From assembly GCA_048938445.1 (NCBI GenBank), contig JBHLME010000001.1:27951-91950 (forward strand): 64,000 nt of DNA, read 5' to 3'. How positions within the stretch are numbered: position 1 is the first letter of the stretch; every line of letters starts with the position of its first letter. Source of the stretch: Promethearchaeota archaeon (GTDB lineage: Archaea; Asgardarchaeota; Lokiarchaeia; Sigyniarchaeales; SOKP01). Positions 7,391 to 64,000 of the stretch are shown here, one piece after another. A model generated the notes under the pieces. That model was not told the origin of the DNA. It worked only from the letters and a program-made list of their open reading frames with translations, and did not search any database. The position numbers and the translations under genes are program-made.

Positions 7391-8716
7391 GTGATAAATA
7401 TCGAGGAAAATAATGTATCTAGAACCAAGATAAAGACGTTTCTAAGTTCTAACTCTCTATTCGTGAAGAAGTTATTTAAAACGATGTTAGTATCCATCAT
7501 TTTAGGTGGTTTTTGTGGTATAGTAATGGTGTTATTTAATTATTTATTACTTATTTTTAAATTTAGCTTTTCCTTCTTACCCTATTTCCTATCACCATTA
7601 ATCGCTGGGTCATTAACAAGTATTTTAGTTAAGTTGGGTAAATTTGACAGAGTACTAGGAACAGGGGCTACTGAATTTGTTGAAGAAATACATGAAACAA
7701 GAACAAAATCTAAAAAAATCCCAAATTTAATTGCTAAAACATTTGCTACTTCTTGGACATATGGTTCGGGTATTATATGTGGTGTTGAAGGACCTGGAAT
7801 TTTAATTGGTGCCGATATAGGTCAAATCCTTTCAAGCAAGTTGGGATCAGATGAAAAAAACAATATGTTTATAGGTGCAAGTGCCTGCACGGGTGCAATT
7901 TTAAAAGCACCTATAACTGGAGCACTTTTTTGCGCGGAATTGCCATATTTAAACCATATTAAATACGAATCATTGATTCCTTCTATTCTAGCATCAACCG
8001 TAGCATATCTAATCTTTTGTTTATTTTTTGGGTTCAAACCTTTAATAGAAAGTAATATTTCGTTTAATCCTGATCTTTTTTTTCACATAACTCTTTTACC
8101 GCTACTTTTTTTATTTGGTATTATTACTGGACTCATCATCTTAATCTTTATGGGAATTTTAAATGTGATTAAATCTAAATTGAAAAACACATTCCAATCA
8201 AAATCCTTATTTTGGCTACTTCCATTAGTAGGGGCAACTTTATATGCAATTTATCTACTAATACTTATCCCTTTTACTGAAGAGCAATATCAAGTAGCTT
8301 TCATAGGTCCAGACATGTCATTTTTATCGTATTTGATAAATAACTTCACTAAAGTTAGCTTCTTATTTTTAATAGTTGCTCCCGTCCTAATTTTAATTGC
8401 AATATATTTTTCAATTGGAACTTTTAATAGCGCAGGAATTATTTTACCATTAATGCTATTTGGAGGTCTGGTTGGAGGTTTATTTGGTGTAATTTTCTAT
8501 CCTAATAATCCTGAATTATTTGTAATATTAGGAATCTCAGCTGTCTTGGGATCAGCAACAAACAATCCCATCGCAGCAATAGCAATTATCATTGAAATGA
8601 CATGGATTCCAGAATTATTCATTCCTGCAGGAATTACTACTATCATTACTTATATTTTTAGTGGACCAAACTCTATTATTCCAGGGCAAAGATCAGTTAA
8701 ATTTCAATTGATTTAA
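7391..8716 (+). CDS. ClC-family chloride channel/antiporter
   Basis: GVEGP gating motif, 'APITGALFCAE', 'GIILPLMLFGGLVG', 'IIIEMT'. Confidence 0.9.
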   Translation: MINIEENNVSRTKIKTFLSSNSLFVKKLFKTMLVSIILGGFCGIVMVLFNYLLLIFKFSFSFLPYFLSPLIAGSLTSILVKLGKFDRVLGTGATEFVEEIHETRTKSKKIPNLIAKTFATSWTYGSGIICGVEGPGILIGADIGQILSSKLGSDEKNNMFIGASACTGAILKAPITGALFCAELPYLNHIKYESLIPSILASTVAYLIFCLFFGFKPLIESNISFNPDLFFHITLLPLLFLFGIITGLIILIFMGILNVIKSKLKNTFQSKSLFWLLPLVGATLYAIYLLILIPFTEEQYQVAFIGPDMSFLSYLINNFTKVSFLFLIVAPVLILIAIYFSIGTFNSAGIILPLMLFGGLVGGLFGVIFYPNNPELFVILGISAVLGSATNNPIAAIAIIIEMTWIPELFIPAGITTIITYIFSGPNSIIPGQRSVKFQLI

Positions 8717-58196: not shown

Positions 58197-59000
58197 ATGA
58201 AGATTGCTGTTTCTGGAAAGGGTGGTGTTGGTAAGACTTCTATAGCAGGTACTCTCGCTAGACTCTTTGCCAAGGATGGTTTTAAGGTATTAGCTATTGA
58301 TAATGATTCTGCTATGAACTTGAGTTATAGTTTAGGAATTGATCCCGACATAAAGGAGAAAATAGTACCCATCTCAGAAATGACCGACTTAGTTAAAGAG
58401 AGAACTCAAGTAGAAGGAGCACCTTCTGGTGTATATAATATCACTCCCGAAGTTTCTGACATACCAGATAGATTTAAAGTTCAAGGTCCAGATGGATTAG
58501 AATTACTCGTATTAGGGGGGATTGAAGAACCTGCCACAGGGTGCCTTTGCCCCCAAAATGCTTTAATTCGAACCCTATTATATAATTTATTTGTTAAAAG
58601 AGATGAGGTAGTGGTTGTCGATTTTGAGGCGGGACTTGAACATTTAGGAAGAGGAACCGCAAAAGGAATTGATGTAATGTTAGTAATAACAGAACCATCG
58701 TTAAAATCCTTAGATTTATGCTCAAAAATTATAGATCTATCTAAAAAATTAGGAATCATTAACATATATTTAATAGCAAACAAGATAATTGAAGAATCTC
58801 AACTAGATATAATAAATAAAAAAATTAATGATTGGGAAATTCCACTTTTTCACTCAATTCCCTTTGATCCTGAGTTAGGAAAAGCAGATTTAAACGGTAT
58901 TTCTCCATTAGATTTTGCTCCAAAATCAAAAGCCATGGAATCTATAAAGCTATTGTATTCAAAGTTAAAGAAACTAAAAAGAGAGATATTTGATATGTAA
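58197..59000 (+). CDS. cooC: CooC-type nickel-insertion ATPase
   Basis: 'SGKGGVGKT', 'GCLCP', 'VDFEAGLEHLGRGTA..ID'. Confidence 0.93.
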   Translation: MKIAVSGKGGVGKTSIAGTLARLFAKDGFKVLAIDNDSAMNLSYSLGIDPDIKEKIVPISEMTDLVKERTQVEGAPSGVYNITPEVSDIPDRFKVQGPDGLELLVLGGIEEPATGCLCPQNALIRTLLYNLFVKRDEVVVVDFEAGLEHLGRGTAKGIDVMLVITEPSLKSLDLCSKIIDLSKKLGIINIYLIANKIIEESQLDIINKKINDWEIPLFHSIPFDPELGKADLNGISPLDFAPKSKAMESIKLLYSKLKKLKREIFDM

Positions 59001-59015
59001 ATTTATTCTTCCCTA

Positions 59016-59264
59016 CTATATAACATCAGAAAGATCTAAGTTTTGATCTTCAGAAATATCTTTCCATTGATTTATTGCTTCTAATGCATCTTCTTCATTC
59101 ATTTGTTCAATGGCATATCCCGCGTGAATGATGACATATTTTCCAATTTGAGGGTTTTGGATTAAAGCTATGATGACTTTTTGTTTAATCCCATCAAAAT
59201 CAACTAAAGCTGTCTTTTCATCAAGATTTATTTCCAAAATTTTTCCAGGGATTGCTAAACACAT
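59016..59264 (-). CDS. hypC: Hydrogenase maturation chaperone HypC
   Basis: 'MCLAIPGKI...A.VDF.G', 'G.YV.IHAGYAI'. Confidence 0.96.
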   Translation of the reverse strand: MCLAIPGKILEINLDEKTALVDFDGIKQKVIIALIQNPQIGKYVIIHAGYAIEQMNEEDALEAINQWKDISEDQNLDLSDVI

Positions 59265-60070: not shown

Positions 60071-60240
60071 ACTACACACGGCTTAAAAGCCGTTGCTTCC
60101 TACGAGTGCACAATCGCTTCTAAAACGGATCGGTCTGTGTGTCGTAGAAAACCATTCCATTGTGTTAGGAATGATTCCTCGTTCACGGAGGGTTTATGCG
60201 AGAGGAAATCGAAAAACTGTTTGGTTTTTAAAAATCTTAC
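60067..60240 (-). ncRNA. Putative omegaRNA (reRNA) scaffold of TnpB
   Basis: Inferred from family behaviour: scaffold overlaps the 3' end of tnpB and ends at the right end; 5' boundary uncertain. Confidence 0.5.
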
Positions 60241-61398
60241 CATAATATTAATTGCCGAGTTAAGATCCCGGTCAATATGATTTCCACAGTCGCAATTTAT
60301 AATCCTTTCAAAGAGGGGTCTTTTTTCAAGCTTTCCACATTTACAGCAAGCGCGAGTGGTTTTTGACTCGTCAATTCTTATCACTCTCTTACCTATTTTT
60401 TCAGCCTTATAGGTCAAGAATTCGACAAATCGCGCCATATAGCCCGTGTTATGTACTGAATGGTTGAGTGTCTTGTGTGCTTTTGTTTTTAGTGAATTTC
60501 CCGTTCCCTTTTTCTTTTGAGCCATCTGTTTTACTTTTAAGTCTCCTATAATTATCGTATTTGCCTTAGTATTGCGTACAATCTGCCTTGAAAGCCAATG
60601 CTGGAAATCTTTTAGTTGATGAGCCTGTTTGGTGATCATATTCTTTAGTTTTGTATCATACCATTGCCATCTATTGCTATATTTCTTACAATGGTCGCGT
60701 TTCGACTGGACTTCTTCTATCTTCTTTTTCCAATACATGTCAGCTCGTCTATTGGTGAACTGTATTGATTTTCTTGATAAGTTTATTCCCACGATTTGAT
60801 TGATTCCCAAATCAAAAGCTTGATATAAACCATTGTCTCGATATTCTGGCACCTCAATCTCATAAGTAATAGAAATAAACCATTTATTTCTTGAGAGAAA
60901 CAGTTCTGTCTGCTTGATGGTTTCTTTTGGAATGAGATAGGATGGAAGTTTAAATTCAAGCACTATATTGGAGGGATGTCTATGTGAAAAAACAATTGAA
61001 CTTTTATTTACCCTGAAGCCAGACTGGTTATAACAAAGTGTTGTAAAATACTTTTTTCCTCGAAATCTTGGTGGTCTTGCCTTTTTATCTCCTCTTTTCC
61101 AGAGGTTAAAAAAGGATTTATAGTTCGCATCGAGTTTTTTAAGAGTATTTTGGAGGACTTTCGAATATACCCACCGATATTCGGGATACTGCGTTTTCAA
61201 TGTGGGTAAATTGCTTGATTGATCCACATATCTCAAATAATTTCGCTCTTTTTTTGGTTTAACTTTCTCTTGGTGCCAATTTTTTAACCGTTCCGCCAAT
61301 GCAAAGTTATAAAGGAGTCGACATTTTTCTGATAAATCCCAAAGAACCTGTTTTTGCTCCTTATCAGGAGCGATCCTAATTTTTTGGGTGAGATACAT
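60100..61398 (-). CDS. tnpB: RNA-guided endonuclease TnpB with rearranged RuvC-II
   Basis: HTH 'CRLLYNFAL', RuvC-I AFDLG (D196), 'IIIGDL', 'IDESKTT', Zn finger CCKC..CDC, RuvC-III DRDLNSAINI (D378). Confidence 0.95.
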   Translation of the reverse strand: MYLTQKIRIAPDKEQKQVLWDLSEKCRLLYNFALAERLKNWHQEKVKPKKERNYLRYVDQSSNLPTLKTQYPEYRWVYSKVLQNTLKKLDANYKSFFNLWKRGDKKARPPRFRGKKYFTTLCYNQSGFRVNKSSIVFSHRHPSNIVLEFKLPSYLIPKETIKQTELFLSRNKWFISITYEIEVPEYRDNGLYQAFDLGINQIVGINLSRKSIQFTNRRADMYWKKKIEEVQSKRDHCKKYSNRWQWYDTKLKNMITKQAHQLKDFQHWLSRQIVRNTKANTIIIGDLKVKQMAQKKKGTGNSLKTKAHKTLNHSVHNTGYMARFVEFLTYKAEKIGKRVIRIDESKTTRACCKCGKLEKRPLFERIINCDCGNHIDRDLNSAINIMVRFLKTKQFFDFLSHKPSVNEESFLTQWNGFLRHTDRSVLEAIVHS

Positions 61399-61573: not shown

Positions 61574-61620
61574 AAAAAAAAAAATAAAAATAAATAAAAC
61601 TCGATATTTAACCGAGTTTT
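61574..61620 (-). terminator. Hairpin plus U-tract terminator of the vhu-hdr operon
   Basis: AAAACTCG/CGAGTTTT stem (61596-61620) over the hdrB stop, followed by T-rich runs on the minus strand. Confidence 0.6.
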
Positions 61621-62477
61621 GCTAATATATCATTTAATCGAACCCTATGGAATTTAAGGCCAATATCATCGCCACTAATTCCCATAGCTAGTGCTAATAA
61701 TTCAGTTAAGTATAAAACAGGGATATTATATTCAGTTTCATACTTTTTAGAAAGATCTCGTTGTTGAGTATCGAATTGTTGGAAGCAAGCAGGGCAATTC
61801 GCCACGATCACGTCAGCACCAGCTTTTTTTATGCTATCCATTTTTTTCTTCAATACTTCAGCACCATGCTCTGGGTAGGCATTAGTTACAGCTGAACCGC
61901 AGCATAAGGCGAGTTCATCATAATCTACTACGGTAGCACCAGTAGCAGCAACAATTTCAGCCAAATTCTTGGGCCGCATAGGATCATCAGATTCCATCCA
62001 TTCAACAGGTCTCATGTAATGACAACCTGGATGACAAGCAACTTTTAAACCACTTAATTGTTTAGTTATTGCTCCCTTTACACCATCAAGATTGTTTTTT
62101 ATTACATCTACGAAGTGTTTTACATCAATTGAACCTTTAAATTCCTTACCAATTTTCGCTAATTCAGCATTAACTTTGGCTTTTTTATTAGAATCATGCT
62201 TTAATTGAGTACATACACCACGTAATGTATTTGCACATCCATTACATAAAGAGATAATATCTTTTCCTTCAGCTTCTGCTAAGCAGATATTTCTTGCTCC
62301 AATTGTTAACCATGCATCATTATCAAAACTTTTCATTCCTGTTGGATCAGGACAACATGAAAATGGAGCTTGAGATGTTTGGACTCCAATTTTATCTAGA
62401 ACCTTTCGAGAAGCAGCTTCAATGAAAGGAATTCTATTTCCAATCGTACAACCTTCAAACATTTTAAATTCTGTCAT
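61608..62477 (-). CDS. hdrB: Heterodisulfide reductase subunit B
   Basis: CCG domains: 'GC', 'SCCP', 'CNGC', 'HPGCH', 'CCG', 'CPACFQQFD', 'PVLYLTELLALAMG'. Confidence 0.96.
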   Translation of the reverse strand: MTEFKMFEGCTIGNRIPFIEAASRKVLDKIGVQTSQAPFSCCPDPTGMKSFDNDAWLTIGARNICLAEAEGKDIISLCNGCANTLRGVCTQLKHDSNKKAKVNAELAKIGKEFKGSIDVKHFVDVIKNNLDGVKGAITKQLSGLKVACHPGCHYMRPVEWMESDDPMRPKNLAEIVAATGATVVDYDELALCCGSAVTNAYPEHGAEVLKKKMDSIKKAGADVIVANCPACFQQFDTQQRDLSKKYETEYNIPVLYLTELLALAMGISGDDIGLKFHRVRLNDILAKLG

Positions 62478-62493: not shown

Positions 62494-63000
62494 TTATTTT
62501 AATTTCTTATCCGCTCCAATATTTTTCATTAATGTTTGTAATTCATTTATATCTGGAGCCGCAACAGCTGGTAATCCTAGCTGTTCTCGTCGCTTTTCAA
62601 TCGCAGGTTGTGATGGAATTGCTTTCGAATTCTCATAAATCGCTTTTGCTTGTGAATAGATAAAATCAGGAGCATCTCCTTTAGCAGTGCTTACATTCTT
62701 TAAAAATGAAAAGATCTCTGTCAATTCAATATGCTGAGGACAGACCTCATCACAAGTATCACATACAGTACAACCCCATATGGCAAGCTTTTCAGCACTT
62801 AAGAGTAAGTCTTTATATCCTAATAAAGAACCTAAAATTATATGCCTTGGGTTATAACCAGTCGTACCATAAAAATCAATAGTAACAGCAGCTACTGGAC
62901 AATTATCAGTACACCTGTTACATTGATAACAATACTTGATAGCTTCAGATCCTATGTGATAATCCATAATTTGTTTTCTAAATTCAAAATCTAATGACAT
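62494..63000 (-). CDS. hdrC: Heterodisulfide reductase subunit C
   Basis: CYQCNRCTDNCP and CTVCDTCDEVCP; directly upstream of hdrB; ATG at 63000 (track uses 63009). Confidence 0.94.
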   Translation of the reverse strand: MSLDFEFRKQIMDYHIGSEAIKYCYQCNRCTDNCPVAAVTIDFYGTTGYNPRHIILGSLLGYKDLLLSAEKLAIWGCTVCDTCDEVCPQHIELTEIFSFLKNVSTAKGDAPDFIYSQAKAIYENSKAIPSQPAIEKRREQLGLPAVAAPDINELQTLMKNIGADKKLK

Positions 63001-63047
63001 TTTTTTCACTTTTTTTGAGTTTTTTCCTTTATTTTTTCAATCATTAT

Positions 63048-63122
63048 TGTTGGTTTGAACCCTTGCAAGGGCAGTCATATCCAATCTATAATTTCTATTG
63101 GATATTTCATCCTAAACCAACA
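63048..63122 (-). promoter_or_regulatory. Eukaryote-like SECIS element of vhuU
   Basis: Minus strand AUGA-A-AUAUCCAAU-[AGAAAUUAUAG]-AUUGGAUAU-GA; outer helix UGUUGGUUU/AAACCAACA; side hairpin CCCUUGCAAGGG. Confidence 0.8.
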
Positions 63123-63256
63123 TTCAACTTGCGAGAGTAAATCTCTTCACCCTTCTCATCAACTACGGTGATGTGAGCGGCGCATGATAGTCAGCAGTCA
63201 AAACAACGGACTATCATTTCCAAGACATTTACTACTCCTTCGGGTACATCACTCAT
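63107..63256 (-). CDS. vhuU: Selenoprotein VhuU, small C-terminal subunit of a split [NiFeSe]-hydrogenase (Sec at residue 22), absent from the ORF track
   Basis: MSDVPEGVVNVLEMIVRCFDC-U(TGA 63191-63193)-LSCAAH-ITVVDEKGEEIYSRKLNVGLG*; supplies the L2 motif missing from the upstream large subunit. Confidence 0.93.
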
Positions 63257-63295
63257 TTTTTTAATTCACTTCTATATATTTAATTTTGATTTAGT

Positions 63296-64000
63296 TTATT
63301 TTATCCATGGATCTGGTAATTTCAGTCCATCCAACGCCTTGTCTTCAAAAACTTGTTTGGCAACGTGCATCAAGGATTTCTCGATGCCAGCAATGTTGTG
63401 ATTCGTCGCAACCAAGAGGTTTGCCTTCTCGCAAATTCCTTGCGCATCAGACCAAATATTATACAACAATATTCCTCGTGGTGCTTCTGTCATGCCAACA
63501 CCATTCCCAGCCCTTGGTTCGACATCCAAAGTCTTGCAATCAGGGTTTACGATGTCAGGATCCTTGAGCAATGTCGCGATCATTTCGATTGCTTCCACGG
63601 TCTCGATGATGCGAGCCCAGTGATAGGCAAACGTGTGATGCGGATTGTCTCCAATCTTAGCACGCATGTCCTTGAGGGCCTGATCGGCCAATGGTGTTGC
63701 CATCTTGTCAGCAGCATTGACCATTGCCAAACAGTTCGCACGATAAATTCCATCAGGGTAGCCCGCAGGCTTGTAGTACATGTGCGTGGCATAAGAATGC
63801 TCAGGAATGTGTTCACCTAACGCTTCCAAGTAGTTATGATAATCATAATCGATCTTCTTTCCATCGGGAGTCACGATCCTGATATCACCGTCGTAAATAT
63901 CGTGAACACCATTCTTGGTCATGCCAAAATAATACGTTGGAACGACGCCGACATTCGCGATGACATCAAAATAATCATCAACCACTTTTAAGGCAATTTC
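63296..64000 (-). CDS. vhuA: Group 3c [NiFe(Se)]-hydrogenase large subunit, 5'-truncated by the window edge and lacking the L2 motif
   Basis: 'YHWARIIE', 'GVGMTEAPRG.L', 'ANLLVAT.HN'; frame open to 64000; ends ...LPDPWIK without DPCxxCxxH. Confidence 0.92.
   Translation of the reverse strand, partial: EIALKVVDDYFDVIANVGVVPTYYFGMTKNGVHDIYDGDIRIVTPDGKKIDYDYHNYLEALGEHIPEHSYATHMYYKPAGYPDGIYRANCLAMVNAADKMATPLADQALKDMRAKIGDNPHHTFAYHWARIIETVEAIEMIATLLKDPDIVNPDCKTLDVEPRAGNGVGMTEAPRGILLYNIWSDAQGICEKANLLVATNHNIAGIEKSLMHVAKQVFEDKALDGLKLPDPWIK

Follow-up and report, generated by a model that had tools for sequence, protein, structure and literature searches.

The 64,000-nucleotide (nt) stretch of DNA analyzed here (the window) comes from an Asgard, Lokiarchaeia-like archaeon and carries, at 63107–63256 on the minus strand, a very small gene that we are highly confident is vhuU, coding for the separate C-terminal end of the large subunit of a group 3c [NiFeSe] hydrogenase (F420-non-reducing, Mvh/Vhu-type), with the UGA at 63191–63193 predicted to be read as selenocysteine (Sec) by means of a selenocysteine insertion sequence (SECIS) of the lokiSECIS type. 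A preliminary description of the window had proposed that a hidden 49-residue VhuU selenoprotein completes a split hydrogenase here, and translation, alignments to structures in the PDB and orthologs in related genomes each bear this out, with NF041786 as the best NCBIfam family at a score below its cut-off. The Asgard VhuU, its SECIS and the placement of the stop codon inside the SECIS are already published for the lineage, as far as the text of the two reports goes (Mariotti 2016, PMC4989117; Huang 2024, PMC11227280), and the locus is a further instance of this Asgard Sec system, which bridges the archaeal and eukaryotic SECIS types. Two elements go unremarked in that text: the conserved adjacency of Cys and Sec, and the predicted additional helices of the SECIS.

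The genes of the vhuU locus all lie on the minus strand, and TGA was read as U for translation. The features that carry the argument are:

63296..64000, minus strand: 3' part of vhuA (large-subunit gene of a [NiFeSe] hydrogenase, group-3c-type): the final 234 codons, then TAA as stop codon at 63296–63298
63257..63295, minus strand: spacer of 39 nt between vhuA and vhuU, from the gene coordinates
63107..63256, minus strand: vhuU, 49 codons followed by the stop codon UGA (63107–63109); from translation, PDB alignments, the best NCBIfam match (NF041786, below cut-off) and orthologs
63191..63193, minus strand: UGA codon of Sec22, at the terminal Ni-ligand position of the L2 motif; from translation and PDB alignments
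63194..63196, minus strand: codon of Cys21, which replaces the canonical Pro of DP(C/U)
63203..63205, minus strand: codon of Cys18, the residue after the motif Arg; Ala in solved MvhA and VhuU
63173..63184, minus strand: Cys25-Ala-Ala-His28, comprising the bridging (second) ligand Cys and the closing His of the mature L2 motif; from PDB alignments
63110..63172, minus strand: C-terminal extension, 21 codons after His28, presumably removed by an endopeptidase
63048..63122, minus strand: SECIS of the Asgard (lokiSECIS) type; from the fold, covariation and the covariance model R1

A hydrogenase large subunit in two pieces

The vhuA reading frame of the window terminates in ...LKLPDPWIK and lacks a DPCxxCxxH motif, in agreement with the earlier remark that the upstream large subunit ends without its L2 metal-binding segment. 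The small open reading frame (ORF) that begins 39 nt later (ATG at 63256) contains the segment R17-C18-F19-D20-C21-U22-L23-S24-C25-A26-A27-H28. When aligned to PDB chains, VhuU residues 4–31 lie over residues 424–451 of MvhA, and residue 22 falls on the Cys of 'DPC' in the MvhA chains 5odc_F, 9sw2_F and 7t2r_D and on X (Sec) of the solved 27-residue VhuU chain 9sfi_M, so the TGA indeed occupies the first Ni-ligand position, as had been claimed. At this site the solved MvhA and VhuU chains read R-A-Y-D-P-C/X and the VhuU of the window reads R-C-F-D-C-U. The tail of 21 residues that follows ..CAAH, likewise described beforehand, aligns with part of the C-terminal extension of FrhA in 3zfs_A, and chain 9sfi_M has 27 residues, shorter than the VhuU precursors in the supplement of PMC11227280, which continue past the His. 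We take Cys25 and His28 to fill the roles assigned to these positions in established knowledge of [NiFe] hydrogenases. A gene for a HycI-family protease is found on another contig (C80) of the same genome.

The window shares its end with its contig (C176), which leaves the N-terminal half of vhuA off the contig, and the remaining fragment gives a weak match to PF00374. A paralogous vhuA on contig C158 of the same genome has 446 codons from stop to stop, and the last 234 residues that it encodes match the window fragment without a difference. Searched as a protein of 442 residues starting at the first Met, this VhuA found its best PDB match in VhuA chain 9sfi_g (426 bits), followed by MvhA chain 5odc_F (345 bits), and its best NCBIfam family in NF041785 VhuA (473 bits); it holds the L1 motif R-I-C-G-I-C, and its alignments end near residue 416–425 of the 473-residue MvhA, where VhuU takes over. 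For VhuU of the window, NF041786 VhuU was the best NCBIfam family (E 2e-13, 49.9 bits). From the position of the split, together with the alignments to MvhA, VhuA and VhuU, we therefore conclude that the pair is a split VhuA/VhuU, cut as in Methanococcales.

The likeness to the Methanococcales proteins (NF041785/NF041786), two of whose Hdr-Vhu assemblies, from Methanococcus maripaludis, are PDB 9SFI and 9T1S (PMC13518236), covers the place of the split, the position of Sec and the link to Hdr; it extends to S-C-A-A-H after Sec and to a tail beyond the His. The differences lie in the motif, which in Methanococcales VhuU is R-A-Y-D-P-U or R-S-Y-D-I-U, and in the gene order, hdrC-hdrB following directly after vhuU in the window. 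Unsplit Cys-type MvhA (Methanothermococcus thermolithotrophicus 5ODC; 9SW2, 7T2R) belongs to the same fold family and has the same L2 segment, but it is a single polypeptide with D-P-C and no Sec. In a library search with the 50-residue VhuU query, 11 matches were obtained at E ≤ 0.001, and full-length large subunits were not significant, the query being so short. Among three candidate fused long forms carrying the same words, one, a protein of 112 residues, matched at E ≤ 0.01; this is weak evidence that D-C-C/U is restricted to split forms. The vhuU gene is missed or mistranslated by standard gene callers, and without it the hydrogenase seems short of half its metal ligands.

Predicted recoding of the UGA codon

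At E ≤ 0.01 the VhuU query found matches in 37 of 41 related genomes, with the window's own genome counted among them, and nearly all strong matches contained exactly one TGA. In a sample of 301 genomes from the phylum, 181 matched at E ≤ 0.001; nearly all of the matches listed had one TGA and two had no stop, and the weak-scoring end consisted of the C-termini of unsplit large subunits, not of VhuU. For residue and codon counts we used 64 distinct small-subunit genes, a set that is not a random sample (30 loci from the 41-genome search, 40 regions chosen to span families and 12 longer re-fetches). The Ni-ligand codon is TGA in 61 of these genes and TGT (Cys) in 3, and in all relatives the protein sequence encoded past the TGA is conserved. 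The preliminary description had allowed for an assembly error hiding a TGC or TGT at the Sec codon; of four public runs compared, all of them DNA contigs, X1, X2 and X3 cover 63191–63193 with no difference listed there (they belong to two studies, and one may be the source sample), and since both the TGA and the frame are conserved across relatives, such an error is implausible.

The three Cys-type genes, which read R-C-Y-D-C-C, lie at G241:C96:5414-5557, G027:C117:3004-3114 and G102:C63:34324-34455 (genome and contig handles of this study). They have no in-frame TGA and no SECIS match, and each of their genomes also has a Sec-type vhuU, a coexistence that recalls the Vhu/Vhc duality of Methanococcus.

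A structured RNA of eukaryote-like SECIS form overlaps the 3' end of vhuU. Between 63125 and 63040, 86 nt fold with a minimum free energy of −22.3 kcal/mol (z −3.24), and none of 200 shuffled sequences was as stable. The fold comprises, in order: a lower helix (63114–63122 with 63048–63056); AUGA (63107–63110); one extra A; a perfect 9-bp upper stem (63097–63105 with 63077–63085; AUAUCCAAU/AUUGGAUAU); an A-rich apical loop of 11 nt (63086–63096; AGAAAUUAUAG); GA at 63075–63076; a small 3' hairpin at about 63059–63072; and the closing strand of the lower helix. The SECIS starts 84 nt downstream of the Sec UGA. The UGA within AUGA is the stop codon of vhuU, and the last four codons of the tail double as the 5' strand of the lower helix. 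A scan of 62900–63350 against Rfam returned only chance-level small nucleolar RNA and CRISPR matches (E above 2), and Rfam appears to hold no family for the Asgard type of SECIS.

Of 67 distinct 3' regions of the Sec type, 58 have an in-frame TGA as their first terminator; an alignment of these 58 yielded 19 consensus pairs that fall into three parts of the structure: firstly, the lower helix, counted as two helices of 4 pairs; secondly, the upper stem; thirdly, the 3' mini-hairpin. Eighteen of the 19 pairs change on both sides, as do 8 of the 8 predicted pairs of the upper stem. Paired cells amount to 90.7%, as compared to 69.3% after shuffling and 29–49% with partners slid, and the covariation score is 0.709, as compared to 0.301 shuffled and 0.09–0.20 slid; the shuffle control overstates the significance because the 58 sequences are related. 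Swaps between close relatives (GGUUU/AAACC versus GGCUU/AAGCC) agree with the slide control on the pairing. The alignment and the covariance model built from it, R1, replaced a crude pattern scan that had missed many true elements. R1 gives the window SECIS 76.9 bits, a score expected by construction because the alignment contains the window sequence, and it finds four further SECIS-like elements in the same genome, one of them just after the gene for selenophosphate synthetase (SPS). None of the 6 loci holding the 3 Cys-type (D-C-C) genes was matched by R1.

Beyond the core, the lower helix joins the last vhuU codons to sequence about 60 nt downstream, with covariation, and a mini-hairpin of the form C-C-Y...G-C-A-A...G-G-G stands between the 3' GA and the lower helix at all six R1 sites of the genome, including the one after SPS. 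The sites other than that of the window are C158:3127-3220, C24:4365-4456, C4:7725-7815, C226:2324-2405 and C214:62698-62784. The SPS gene on C226 has its one in-frame TGA and the SECIS-like element just downstream. On C4, the ORF upstream of 7725–7815 (locus L121) looks VhuD/MvhD-like by eye, with two Sec codons in its conserved part, and ends at the SECIS-like element, which scores 39.8 bits with R1.

These features agree with lokiSECIS as the text of PMC4989117 gives it: AUGA is followed by a stem of 9 bp, an A-rich loop of 11 nt whose last base is G, and GA, which is replaced by AA in the VhuU genes of that report. The window has GA instead of AA after the stem, and nothing essential differs; the published Asgard VhuU, as covered in the text of PMC4989117 and PMC11227280, is also a protein of about 50 residues with a single Sec and a SECIS that overlaps the 3' end of the gene. 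In VhuU.1 the AUGA likewise serves as the UGA stop (PMC4989117), and the text of Huang 2024 (PMC11227280) calls overlap of stop codon and AUGA frequent in Asgards. Methanogens have the archaeal GAA_A type of SECIS, according to the relevant passages of PMC13188914 and PMC4989117. The text of PMC4989117 and PMC11227280, searched without the figures, describes the core, upper stem and loop only; a lower helix or mini-hairpin was not found there.

The Sec machinery to which the preliminary description had pointed as a check is present in the genome. Profile searches identified SepSecS (378.7 bits) and SelB/EFsec (243.3 bits, barely over the cut-off of 242.25), alongside a PSTK-like gene and the SPS gene with its in-frame TGA. 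The overlapping ends of contigs C108 (last ~120 nt) and C157 (1–75) together contain a tRNA with anticodon UCA, immediately upstream of SepSecS and some 5 kb away from SelB. It was recognized as tRNA-Sec by a match to Rfam RF01852 (39.5 bits; gathering score 47), by reading of the sequence and by its RNAfold cloverleaf, in which the acceptor stem has 9 bp, the D stem 6 bp and the T stem 4 bp, and the variable arm is long. ARAGORN, run on the whole genome, found 39 tRNAs and did not find tRNA-Sec; run with intron options, it returned nothing or a forced, spurious tRNA-Arg. In its D-loop region the tRNA-Sec carries an insert of about 25 nt that forms a hairpin, and its T-loop is uninterrupted; in this it differs from the Loki tRNA-Sec, for which the text of Mariotti 2016 (PMC4989117) reports a 31-nt intron in the T-loop.

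Several points weigh against the reading of the locus as a Sec-encoding vhuU. The NF041786 score of VhuU is below the NCBI equivalog cut-off of 70 bits, which we infer to reflect divergence from the Methanococcales proteins; the NF041785 score of the C158 VhuA is below its equivalog cut-off of 800 bits, and the HdrB-like and HdrC-like neighbors in the window also score under their equivalog cut-offs. The L1 motif is seen only in the C158 paralog, and the small-subunit gene (PF01058) only at the paralogous C158 locus, because the vhuA of the window is cut by the contig end, its N-terminal half lying off the contig. With 159 bits, the PSTK-like gene stays short of its cut-off of 290.5. Many of the sequences matched by R1 had also served to train it; of 8 Sec-type loci that had not, 5 were matched and L061–L063 were missed. 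Finally, Sec insertion, tail cleavage and the assembled complex are predictions from the DNA sequence.

Taken as a Sec-encoding vhuU, the locus would work as follows. The UGA at 63191–63193 would be read as Sec by machinery of the archaeal/eukaryote type, with SelB and Sec-tRNA. The kink-turn of the lokiSECIS would still be intact with the ribosome at the Sec codon, so that the first UGA would be recoded; by the second UGA the ribosome would have unwound the lower helix and the SECIS core (the kink-turn), and termination would win. Termination on a melted SECIS fits the 'minimal distance' idea set out in the text of Mariotti (PMC4989117). VhuU would dock on VhuA, where Sec22 and Cys25 would join the two L1 Cys of VhuA as Ni-Fe ligands, and a HycI-type endopeptidase would cut the 21-residue tail after His28 once nickel had been inserted. 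The hydrogenase may then feed an Hdr-type bifurcating module; the disulfide substrate of the Asgard Hdr module is described as unknown in the text of PMC11291895.

The cysteines beside selenocysteine

The preliminary description had called the R-C-F-D-C-U motif unusual. This holds against the canonical DP(C/U) and fails within the Asgards, where Cys precedes the Ni-ligand position (position −1; Cys21 in the window) in 59 of the 64 genes. The most frequent motif is R-C-Y-D-C-U (43 genes), followed by R-C-F-D-C-U (12) and R-C-Y-D-C-C (3), and the rarer ones are R-I-Y-D-F-U (3), R-C-Y-D-P-U (2) and R-S-Y-D-C-U (1). Position −1 is Cys through TGC in 46 genes and TGT in 13, Phe in 3 and Pro in 2; position −4 (Cys18 in the window) is Cys in 60 of 64 genes (TGT 33, TGC 27), Ile in 3 and Ser in 1. 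Cys is thus kept at both positions through both of its codons, so it is the amino acid on which selection acts. Further forms among library representatives are R-N-F-D-C-(TGA called W), R-S-Y-D-C-C, R-A-Y-D-C-C, R-C-Y-D-P-C, R-S-Y-D-N-C and R-A-F-D-L-C. The supplementary alignments of Huang (PMC11227280) contain R-C-[FY]-D-C-X sequences as well; by occurrences, in which each sequence probably appears more than once, they hold [YF]-D-C-X 546 times, Y-D-P-X 51, Y-D-I-X 12 and Y-D-F-X 6, the Y-D-I-X entries belonging to Methanococcus and Methanofervidicoccus. The sequences compared show that Cys18 and Cys21 together are a conserved lineage signature of Asgard VhuU, the norm rather than an oddity of this genome.

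A check for interchange of Cys and UGA at residues 18, 21 and 22 had been suggested. Such interchange occurs at residue 22 (61 TGA, 3 TGT) and not at residues 18 and 21, where U was found in none of the 64 genes. Nor was a second TGA present inside the aligned stretch among the matches listed from the 41-genome and 301-genome searches, which leaves the suggestion that the extra cysteines stand in for Sec used at those sites by relatives unsupported in the genomes searched. A comment on the Cys beside Sec was not found in the main text of PMC11227280, in literature searches or in the sections on Sec of PMC4989117, the figures of both reports and the supplement of the latter lying outside the search; the review PMC13188914 characterizes the VhuU family only as 'UxxC'.

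What might the cysteines do? Comparison across relatives makes a second-sphere, redox-tuning or neutral role more likely than direct metal ligation, and within that range a second-sphere or redox role, for example through a reversible Se-S bond, is a tentative suggestion to which we give a minor share of our confidence. Were the near-universal Cys beside the Sec ligand functional, [NiFeSe] chemistry would gain a second-sphere solution of a new kind.

The best surviving alternative, which we regard as rather unlikely, makes the Cys21-Sec22 pair, possibly with Cys18, a redox device: a reversible selenenylsulfide, a role that the preliminary description had also suggested, would park the Ni ligand in an oxidized, protected state, or the pair would tune the potential of the active site. 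The C-terminal Cys-Sec dyad of animal thioredoxin reductase is a functional analogy, with Cys and Sec adjacent as here; its fold is unrelated, and there the dyad itself is the redox center. The persistence of Cys at −1 in deeply diverged Asgard families, through either codon, is in keeping with such a device, as is its retention in the three Cys-type copies (D-C-C), and Cys-Sec pairs are discussed as redox shuttles for HdrA of the same enzyme system in the text of PMC13518236. However, the Sec-type genes with Pro (2) or Phe (3) at −1 indicate an enzyme that works without this Cys; Ile takes the position in some Methanococcales VhuU, and Asn or Leu in library representatives. In addition, no VhuA cysteine column tracks Cys21 or Cys18 in 26 VhuA/VhuU pairs of the D-C-U, D-P-U, D-F-U and D-C-C types. 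A Cys-Sec pair acting as a reversible Se-S switch or protective state is, in our estimate, improbable; if true, it would be a redox switch or protective state not known from any characterized [NiFeSe] enzyme. Separately, the Asgard SECIS may be an element of three helices, with a covarying lower helix and a 3' mini-hairpin added to the core, stem and loop modeled to date.

Considerably less probable is a role for Cys18 and/or Cys21 as extra metal ligands, a possibility that the preliminary description had raised: they could be a fifth or sixth Ni-Fe ligand, or form a transient Ni site while the free peptide matures. In favor are the strong conservation of both residues and the pattern C-x2-C-U-x2-C, which would make a dense cluster of thiols and a selenol on a peptide that has to capture nickel as a separate small protein. 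This idea is weakened by natural variants at both positions (R-I..D-F, R-S, R-N and R-A) and by their lack of coupling, since R-C occurs with D-P and R-S, R-N or R-A with D-C. Pro, Phe, Ile, Asn and Leu at −1 make an obligatory ligand role unlikely, and, with Ile, Ser, Asn and Ala at −4, the variants speak against an indispensable ligand and against any obligatory pairing as C-x-x-C. Four Cys/Sec ligands suffice at the solved Vhu and Mvh sites.

That the TGA is a genuine stop or another amino acid, through a decayed remnant, an assembly error or genome-wide reassignment of UGA, is extremely improbable: the W at TGA in the public calls P0002, P0003, P0005 and P0009 and the failure of ARAGORN to find a tRNA-Sec would favor it, but the frame past the TGA is conserved in all relatives, vhuU itself ends on a TGA that must terminate, a covarying SECIS, Sec machinery and a tRNA with anticodon UCA are present, Cys-type homologs have Cys and not Trp at the site, and the public contigs that cover the TGA list no variant base. 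The four library proteins read both TGAs of an Asgard vhuU as W and run past the true stop; these predictions are a systematic mis-annotation of the vhuU family.

A second hydrogenase locus and the neighboring genes

The gene order in the window is vhuA-vhuU-hdrC-hdrB, and the two genes downstream of vhuU are:

62494..63009, minus strand: hdrC-like gene with two 4Fe-4S motifs; Fer4_8 and other matches; TIGR03290 at 79.8 bits (cut-off 160)
61608..62477, minus strand: hdrB-like gene with two CCG domains; PF02754 at 100 bits; TIGR03288 at 277.8 bits (cut-off 345)

The second locus in the genome lies at C158:3199-6219 on the minus strand, in the order vhuG-like, vhuA, hdrC, hdrB, vhuU; unlike in the window, its vhuU sits about 1.5 kb from vhuA. 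Both orders recur in the family, 14 loci being arranged as in the window and 11 having hdrB directly before vhuU, and the HdrB and HdrC proteins of the two locus types are only about 55–60% identical. The vhuA copies (window 63296–64000 and C158:4873-5583) are 96.6% identical in DNA over 711 nt and 100% identical in protein over 234 residues, and the coding differences are therefore all synonymous. The break in the assembly at the end of C176 is probably explained by the contig ending inside this repeated vhuA. Besides its two Sec-type vhuU copies, the genome holds an unsplit D-P-C large subunit of 452 residues on contig C214, ending ...RAFDPCISCATH.

About 2.3 kb beyond hdrB is a gene for a HypC/HupF hydrogenase maturation chaperone (59016–59264, minus strand), adjoined by a gene for a P-loop ATPase of the MinD/ParA/CooC type (58197–59000, plus strand); both may be maturation helpers for the same hydrogenase. 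Between these genes and the locus, just downstream of the hdrB-like gene, is a TnpB/IS605 OrfB-type gene (60100–61398, minus strand) with Cas12f1-like TNB, HTH_OrfB_IS605 and OrfB_IS605 domains.

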